The translations under genes and the position numbers were made by a program. Shown here one piece after another: positions 31,493 to 34,400 of a stretch of DNA of 51,291 nucleotides (the first letter of the stretch is position 1; the number at the start of each line of letters is the position of its first letter). The DNA is from Atractiella rhizophila (lineage: Eukaryota): positions 62,001-113,291 of the forward strand of contig MU271209.1 in NCBI GenBank assembly GCA_021432655.1. The letters are read 5' to 3'. Below the pieces are notes generated by a model. The model saw only the letters and a list, made by a program, of their open reading frames with translations, was not told the DNA's origin and did no database searches.

Positions 31493-34400
31493 ATGGCCAT
31501 GCGTCGGCGTCCATTCATTTCAACATCAGCCCTTCAGCGTCGCCCAATCCATCCAATCTCGCGCCATCGATTTTGCACCTCCCACATCTCCCGTCAAACG
31601 AGCACTGGCACCCAGCAAGCGAGCACCCAGCAGCCGATCTTCAACCCACATCACACAAAGCTCCCACACCTCTTGCACGAGAGGGAACACTCACAAGTCA
31701 CGGAACTGCCTACTAGTTTGCAGAGGAAGGAAATGACTGAGGTCCTTGTGAAAGATGCTCTGGGGGAGGTGAAGAAGGAAGGAAACGGAGGGAAGAAGAT
31801 TGATGGGACTGAGATCGCAAAGTAAGCGTTTATTGTTGCGATCGGGATTGTGTCGCACGCTATATTTTTCCATTCTGTGGTTGCTTCTTGCCATAAATTC
31901 CAGTCCTGCGGACACTTGGGAATCTGGGTGATCAGCATGCTGGAAAATGAACCATCCATGAAAGATGCGGAAGGTTGATTGCATATTGTTCTACTCTGCT
32001 AGCGCAGACTGGCAAGATACTTCGAGTTGAGATCGATTGTTGTCTTTACCTTAAAACCTACAACAACACTGGCTGCCAAGGTATAGCACAAAGACTAAGT
32101 TTCTCCAAGTAAAAGCTCGAAAATCTATACATAACGGGAAATCAACTGGTTGTTTCAGTTCCTTCTGAAACGCTTGTTAAGATTTGTTTTCATCAATCAA
32201 CATGTGACAATTTCTAAACATTAATCATCGGATTGCAGGACGATTCGCACCAGTATCGGTTCACGAATCAGTGAGACGAAGTCGCGATATCCGCACTTCT
32301 CCCCATCGCTAGCGATAATCCAGCAAGGAACCCGCGCGGACAGTACGACGTATGTAAACATGAAGAAGAAAGCCGCCTTGGAGTGTGGGATCGATTTTCA
32401 GCACATCACACTGGACGAGAATTTGTCAGAGAGGGAGGTGGTCGAAATTGTGGAGAAGCTGAACGGAGATGAGAAGGTCCATGGCATTCTTGTACAGTTG
32501 CCATTGAGCGATGGAGTGGGGAGAGAGGGTGAGAGGAGGGTGGTGGAGAGTATTAGTCCGGAGAAGGATGTAGATGGGTTCGTATTCGCTCTTATCTGAC
32601 GGTTTTGTACTGACGGAGAGCACCATGTCAGATTCCACGCGTATAATATCGGACTTCTCTCCTCCCGCACGTCCAGCCCCATCTTTTCCCCCTGCACGCC
32701 GCTAGGCGTCATCGCTCTATTGGAGAGCACAGGCATCGACATTGCCGGAAAACACGCCGTGGTGTTAGGACGTTCAGATATCGTTGGAACGCCTGTGTGT
32801 GCGTTGTTGAGGAGAAAAGACGCGACTGTGACGCAGTGTCACTCGCGCACCTCTGGGCTAGAGAACATTGTTCGTGCTCCTCCATTATCAATCTGGACTG
32901 TTATTGACGGGATTGGAATTGTCTTTGGCTTTGGAATGTGACAGGTCAAAATGGCAGACATTCTCATTGCCGCGATTGGAAAGCCAGAGTTTGTGAAGGG
33001 CGAATGGTTGAAGGAAGGCGCTATCGTCATTGACGTGGGCACCAATTTCGTACCTGGTGCGTCCACACAGCCTGCCCTTCTCGTTCAAAATTCCTAAGAG
33101 TAAAGTTGGGCAGACGCAAGCAAGAAGACTGGCCAACGCCTTGTAGGAGATGTCCATTACGACTCCGCTTCAAAGGTTGCCAGTCATATCACACCCGTAC
33201 CTGGAGGCGTAGGGCCAATGACAGTTGCGATGCTGATGCGCAATACACTTACGTCGGCAGAGCGGTTCCTCGAGAAGAACGCCAAGAGGACCGTCAGACC
33301 GCTGAAGCTGAATTTACTAGAAAAAGTGCCTAGGTATGTTCGCACTGCATGGACTGATTTACGGCTGATAATGTGGTGAAATAGTGACATTGTCATTGCT
33401 AAGAGCCAGAGACCAAAATTGATCGATGAACTTGCGGATGAGATTGGAGTCCCTGGAAAGCATTTGGAACTTTACGGAAAGTATAAGGCCAAGGTCAGTT
33501 TGGAGATCTTGAATGCTTTGGCGCATCGCAAGTATGTGTTGTTATTCTTCATTAATGGACTCAACTGATAGCGCTGCAGGGATGGAAAATACATTGTCGT
33601 AGCTGGGTTCGGAATTTACCCCTCGATCAGCTCACTTTCTAATCTAAAAGTTTTCTTAGAATCACTCCCACTCCCCTTGGCGAAGGAAAGTCGACGACCA
33701 CTATTGGTCTCGTTCAGGCTCTTGGAGCACACTTGGACAAAGTCGCCTTTGCCTGTGTCCGACAGCCCTCCCAAGGACCGACTTTTGGTATCAAAGGAGG
33801 AGCAGCGGGTGGCGGATACAGTCAAGTCATTCCCATGGAGGAATTCAACTTACATCTCACTGGTGTGTCCTCCCTAGTACTACCCCGACTTCCACGCTTG
33901 AGGGAAGAATCCTCCTGTCTCAGCTAACTTGTTTCGGACGTTTCTTTGAGTCGAAATAAAGGGCGCTTCACTTCCGTCGTTTGCTTGGAATAGCGAAACT
34001 CAGCTGAGCACTTTCATAGCACGTAGTTATCGTCGGCGACATCGTAGCTACTCGTTAACCGGACAAGTGGGTTCAGTTTCGTACACGCGTGGTTTCGTTT
34101 AATAATCGTCGTCACTGTCGTACCAACAGTGGATGTCGGCCTCAGTCCCGAGAAAGTTGCATTATAACTTTTANNNNNNNNNNNNNNNNNNNNNNNNNNN
34201 NNNNNNNNNNNNNNNNNNNNNNNNNNNNNNNNNNNNNNNNNNNNNNNNNNNNNNNNNNNNNNNNNNNNNNNNNNNNNNNNNNNNNNNNNNNNNNNNNNNN
34301 NNNNNNNNNNNNNNNNNNNNNNNNNNNNNNNNNNNNNNNNNNNNNNNNNNNNNNNNNNNNNNNNNNNNNNNNNNNNNNNNNNNNNNNNNNNNNNNNNNNN

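Follow-up and report, generated by a model that had tools for sequence, protein, structure and literature searches.

Why does a gene for a folate enzyme lose its sense shortly before a gap in the assembly of Atractiella rhizophila, and regain it at some distance beyond that gap? We report that both flanks of the gap are written in mirror order, reversed without complement, and that the mirrored segment is a recurring data error which makes the gene look cut short, and not new biology. The window, i.e. the whole stretch of DNA that was analysed (51,291 nucleotides, C30:62001-113291), belongs to a 51.47-Mb assembly of 1998 pieces and contains a single N run (34174-34716). Positions given without a label refer to the window.

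The interrupted gene and the mirrored flanks of its gap

The stretch 30019-47367 is found in three copies in the assembly (the window, C490, and C921) with 89-96% identity. Nearly all variable columns of the three copies hold two alleles, arranged in blocks where a single copy stands apart from the remaining pair, the pattern that two haplotypes distributed among three assembled copies would give. When six other loci were looked up, one partner was found for four of them and two partners for one. Window positions 39906-40001 span fewer than 100 bases, versus about 800-850 bases in C490:10007-10858 and C921:7891-8689; judged from the letters, this length difference is apparently an insertion or deletion polymorphism.

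The gene split by the mirrored sequence and the gap is that of a fungal C1-tetrahydrofolate synthase, and its plus-strand exons match PF00763, PF02882, and PF01268. The N-terminal dehydrogenase/cyclohydrolase catalytic domain (PF00763) lies at 32243-32575 (E 8.8e-31) and the NAD(P)-binding domain (PF02882) at 32633-32866 (E 6.2e-25) and 33116-33331 (E 1.7e-18). The FTHFS profile (PF01268) is represented in the printed window by profile positions 2-128 and 451-509 (62-128 at window 33661-33864) and in both C490 and C921 by positions 2-509; its middle part was recovered from the mirrored reading of the window. By its domain set the gene would encode a trifunctional C1-tetrahydrofolate synthase and would be an ordinary folate-enzyme gene, and full-length homologues among the 120 of 8000 matches listed are labelled as basidiomycete or other fungi. 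The features of the locus are as follows.

31493..33874, plus strand: 5' part of the C1-tetrahydrofolate synthase gene in correct order (start inferred from database protein P0005; 94.8-96.5% identity to C490/C921), holding the dehydrogenase/cyclohydrolase domains (three exons: PF00763, PF02882) and FTHFS profile positions up to 128
33863..33874, plus strand: first 12 bases of a phase-1 intron, the final correct letters before the junction (the C490 forward match and a loose end of run X1 both end at 33874)
33875..34173, no strand: left extension, 299 bp, reversed without complement (mirror BLAST; three-way alignment); read downward it comprises intron end 34173-34132, exon 34131-34092, intron 34091-34038, exon 34037-33988, intron 33987-33937, and exon 33936-33875
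34124..34126, no strand: AAC codon of the mirrored reading, encoding the Asn of GDNHA; true allele, shared by C490 and C921
34093..34095, no strand: run of three T, one base more than in the other copies, shifting the frame (private insertion in the three-way alignment)
34174..34716, no strand: leftover gap of 543 N (641 bases here in the other copies)
34717..35395, no strand: right extension, 679 bp, mirrored on its own and in place (mirror BLAST; run depth and loose ends)
35396..35975, plus strand: 3' exons up to the stop codon in correct order (PF01268 positions 455-504; tblastn with P0109; spliced joints in runs X3 and X4)

Read as printed, the exon with EEFNLHLT and the first base of the following Gly codon ends at 33862, and the forward alignment of the window to C490 and C921 halts at 33874-33875 and restarts at 35396. 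When reversed without complement, the left flank aligns in mirror BLAST with C490 (34171-33874, 96.6%, 298 columns) and with C921 (34172-33874, 95.0%, 299 columns), and the right flank (35400-34718) with the same two copies at 98.2% and 98.7%, respectively, over 684 columns. The left flank scores 484 bits mirrored versus 23.8 bits as printed on either strand (E 1.5), the top score of 200 shuffles being 31.9, which bears out the preliminary description, according to which the gene reads forward to EEFNLHLT and is continued on reading back from 34173. No continuation of the gene was found in the printed left segment, in either its reverse complement or any of the six ordinary frames. Its mirrored reading completes a 54-base intron and then gives three exons parted by two GT..AG introns, in agreement with the intron end and further coding sequence described earlier. 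That description had placed the segment at 33873..34173; the end at 34173 stands, while the true start lies two bases further right, at 33875.

The left junction is clean, in that the forward reading ends with base 33874 and C490 continues from there with the base equivalent to 34173, none being lost and none doubled. Mirror order and in-place boundaries are thereby observed directly for each flank, and given that the right flank is mirrored separately, the locus is not one reversed block, exactly as had been proposed. The origin put forward at the same time, that the contig ends were each extended into the gap, is compatible with the separate in-place flanks and with the clean left junction. 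At the right junction, reversal of positions 35396-35400 gives the same five bases that C490 and C921 have just before the extension, so that the mirror alignment overruns the junction by 5; this overrun is probably chance (about 1 in 1000).

Sequencing runs and single-base changes

Of 15 sequencing runs listed, X1-X4 were examined as contigs (at most three samples), and X5-X15, which hold small shares, were left out. X1 and X2 represent one sample, which differs from the window at fixed sites. Depth is zero at 34736-35202, wholly within the right flank, in all four runs, and amounts to 44.6, 68.4, 13.9, and 0 in bin 33802-34268, values that fit if no more than its 73 forward bases are covered; run depth is given in 467-base bins, from which a depth of zero for the left flank by itself is deduced. 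It was observed directly that the printed mirrored letters occur in no contig of the four runs, and the loss of coverage that had been predicted over the printed segment is accordingly seen in contigs of public runs. Loose ends at 35396 follow the mirrored right flank in four of four runs, with 29 of 30 letters in X1-X3 and 30 of 30 in X4. A loose end at 33874, present in X1 only among the loose ends listed, follows the mirrored left flank; a comparison by eye gives 27 matching letters of 30 and one gap.

Several other observations concern the same runs. X1 has a loose end at 39845. Spliced in X3 and X4 is a GT..AG intron of 417 bases near the 5' end of the gene (31822-32238), which is far longer than the gene's 3' introns (45-55 bases), and a 978-base GT..AG skip is seen in both runs in a neighbouring gene (38262-39239).

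The AAC codon in the GDxHA motif and the extra T occur in the mirrored reading as the preliminary description had it, and both had been taken for read errors. For AAC this is wrong, as both C490 and C921 share the codon and GDNHA recurs in homologues: among the 120 of 8000 homologues listed, the motif reads DIHA in 83, DLHA in 24, DNHA in 9, and otherwise in 2, and it was not found in 2. The extra T (three T at 34093-34095, two in C490, and T-C in C921) occurs in the mirrored copy alone and causes a frameshift; here the earlier suspicion was probably right, and we consider it a probable consensus error, a true null allele being a possible alternative reading of the frameshift.

The second private base of the left flank lies in an intron, and the right flank carries one private coding deletion near 34978 and one private insertion. 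All four private indels are of one base and fall in single-letter runs, with one frameshift per flank, and these 4 events in 979 mirrored columns compare with 2 private gap events, of 3 and of 7 bases, among 3588 columns of forward alignment. Of the 22 sites of the left flank that differ between copies, 14 show the C490 allele and 8 that of C921; the flank has no private substitutions, and both extra bases adjoin differing sites; divergent forward bins show mostly one single split. This allele mixture suggests a vote over reads from two haplotypes. It may possibly be a natural allele instead, given that the X1 loose end is mixed in alleles too and that the right flank has 8 private substitutions.

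Recurrence across the assembly

A mirror scan covered 857,808 bases with 19 N runs (C30, C200, C490, and C921 entire; parts of C5, C15, C60, and C100) using a strand-symmetric 6-mer model that was trained away from gaps, with the scored contig left out. Eight mirror-like segments scored at least 12 nats, all eight of them within 200 bp of an N run (5.7% for a random 1.4-kb stretch). Partners were sought for the six segments that had none, and all six match in mirror order at 86.8-99.1%. The left flank of the window alone scores -10 in this k-mer scan, from which it follows that the scan misses short cases; mirror BLAST added one mirrored flank in C5. Altogether, mirrored sequence was identified in 10 of 38 gap flanks, at 9 of the 19 N runs (4 on the left and 6 on the right, 299 to about 1970 bases long), and accounts for about 9.4 kb of 842 kb of non-N bases, or about 1.1%. 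Some of the N runs may represent withheld sequence; that of the window does not, as its 543 N face 641 bases in the other copies. The further mirrored gap flanks, each with an approximate far boundary, are listed below.

C30:141785-143271, further mirrored gap flank
C200:72058-72750, further mirrored gap flank
C5:158400-158890, further mirrored gap flank
C15:5058-6036, further mirrored gap flank
C15:79572-80411, further mirrored gap flank
C60:24897-26065, further mirrored gap flank
C60:91033-93002, further mirrored gap flank

In the 858 kb scanned, no confirmed mirror was found in 28 of the 38 flanks, no mirror signal at any of 12 scaffold ends, and no strong signal (at least 12 nats) distant from gaps; recurrence at gap flanks only is therefore a direct observation of the scan. 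Below 12 nats the scan is noisy, with 3 of 12 segments lying away from gaps at 10 nats and 16 of 26 at 8, and low-threshold signals away from gaps were taken as noise. Weak mirror scores, seen in the k-mer scan only, occur in C200 to the right of 45553 and in C15 to the right of 81521.

One further mirrored flank, C490:13601-14412, lies to the right of a 71-N gap and has window 42849-43659 as its partner. This partner was considered as a third mirrored block of the window and rejected: run contigs cover its printed letters and no N is nearby, and C490:13601-14412 touches an N run, which together place the fault in C490. Window 42849-43659, as the correct copy, could fill the 71-N gap of C490. 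As a rough extrapolation from 1.7% of the sequence, with larger scaffolds over-represented, some 600 flanks and 0.5-0.6 Mb of the 51.5-Mb assembly may be affected genome-wide.

Origin of the mirrored flanks and comparison with known systems

We regard it as almost certain that the mirrored flanks are an assembly artefact, probably from a gap-extension step in which half of the reverse-complement was applied. A scaffold gap of about 1.5 kb would have lain inside the gene, and a gap-improving step would have built sequence from each contig end, the two ends failing to meet. Both extensions would then have been inserted and the N run shortened by the added lengths. Turning an extension to the scaffold strand by half a reverse-complement would leave it in the right place and in mirror order; complementing a minus-strand consensus without reversing it would, by logic, yield the true plus strand backwards and at its proper position. 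The flanks and the N run amount to 299+543+679 = 1521 bases and the same anchors in the other copies enclose 1615 and 1616, which is compatible with two extensions and a shortened gap. We infer three points, namely the use of long reads for flank extension in this step, a vote among reads from the two haplotypes as the source of the extension, and the identity of the half-operation left out.

The same class of artefact might have come about through short-read or manual gap-patching, a sub-case of the above explanation that we consider unlikely. An accuracy of about 99.5%, as judged by private indels, and the existence of N runs of 6 and 20 bases would suit such patching, but extensions are up to about 2 kb long, the private indels are of the type found in one-letter runs, and the left flank alternates on a fine scale between the alleles of C490 (14 of 22 sites) and C921 (8). 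Extension length, indel type, and allele switching thus lean towards long reads.

An origin of the mirror in later data handling, which would make it absent from the public assembly, is very improbable, given that gap flanks alone are affected and that the database protein P0005 (559 aa) ends in 17 residues translated from mirrored letters, so that the gene caller had the same printed letters. The identity of P0005 with window 33661-33924 is 100% over 88 residues, and C490 matches the first 71 of these only. The protein covers FTHFS profile positions 2-128 of 556, and the mirrored residues that it carries indicate that the fault is already in the public gene model. The first exon gives P0005 a long N-terminal extension, perhaps an optional targeting sequence.

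A real short inversion adjoining the gap, i.e. a reverse complement, would explain why the forward match breaks off at 33875 and nothing else; it is scarcely credible, as the printed segment is without a match on either strand and the uncomplemented reverse alone finds one. Least probable of all is real mirror DNA, produced in the cell by copying of a strand with its chemical direction turned round: the segment is indeed a clean in-place mirror of genomic DNA, introns included, but base-paired copying is antiparallel, the printed letters are in no run contig, the loose ends show the ordinary order, each confirmed case abuts an N run, and both other copies are ordinary.

The significance of the assembly artefact is one of data quality, not biology. 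Mirrored DNA escapes BLAST and HMMER on both strands, and genes located by gaps consequently seem truncated or lost. Gap-flank sequence of the Atractiella rhizophila assembly should first be read backwards as a screen. It is possible, if rather doubtful, that an unreported fault of a widely used gap-filling program, seen here in one assembly, has left about 1% of mirror-written gap flanks in many public hybrid assemblies. If a program-wide fault were true, genes would falsely appear truncated or lost and protein databases would contain invented C-termini, all of which would be recoverable by a simple reverse-read screen. A literature search at the level of listings and abstract openings, with supplements and software issue trackers outside its scope, returned no report of a mirror-writing fault, and word look-ups in portions of PMC8081667, PMC8848313, PMC10166144, and PMC6324547 gave no mention of one.

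The system likened to our case, by mode of action only, is flank extension by PBJelly. According to the portion of its published description examined, flank-extension reads that do not assemble across a gap are incorporated and the gap is reduced (PMC3504050), and the insertion of unmet extensions with shortening of the gap would be compatible with the lengths found here. Two differences should be noted: the same portion of the description is without mirrored output (PMC3504050), and it defines a gap as 25 N (PMC3504050), whereas a 6-N run in C60 with a mirrored flank falls below that definition.

With respect to the gene itself, P0109 (1015 aa, labelled Sporobolomyces) and P0043 (945 aa, labelled Microbotryomycetes) share the domain order PF00763, PF02882, and PF01268 found here. 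The closest enzyme we take to be the trifunctional C1-tetrahydrofolate synthase of the ADE3/MIS1/MTHFD1 type. Ile or Leu is the usual residue in the GDxHA motif, in contrast to the Asn observed here. P0109 aligns along the entire C490 copy, and in the window it aligns partly with the printed and partly with the mirrored reading. While P0109 and P0043 both cover FTHFS profile positions 2-556, the window copy is unlike them in that the middle of its FTHFS domain is hidden by the mirrored sequence and the gap.
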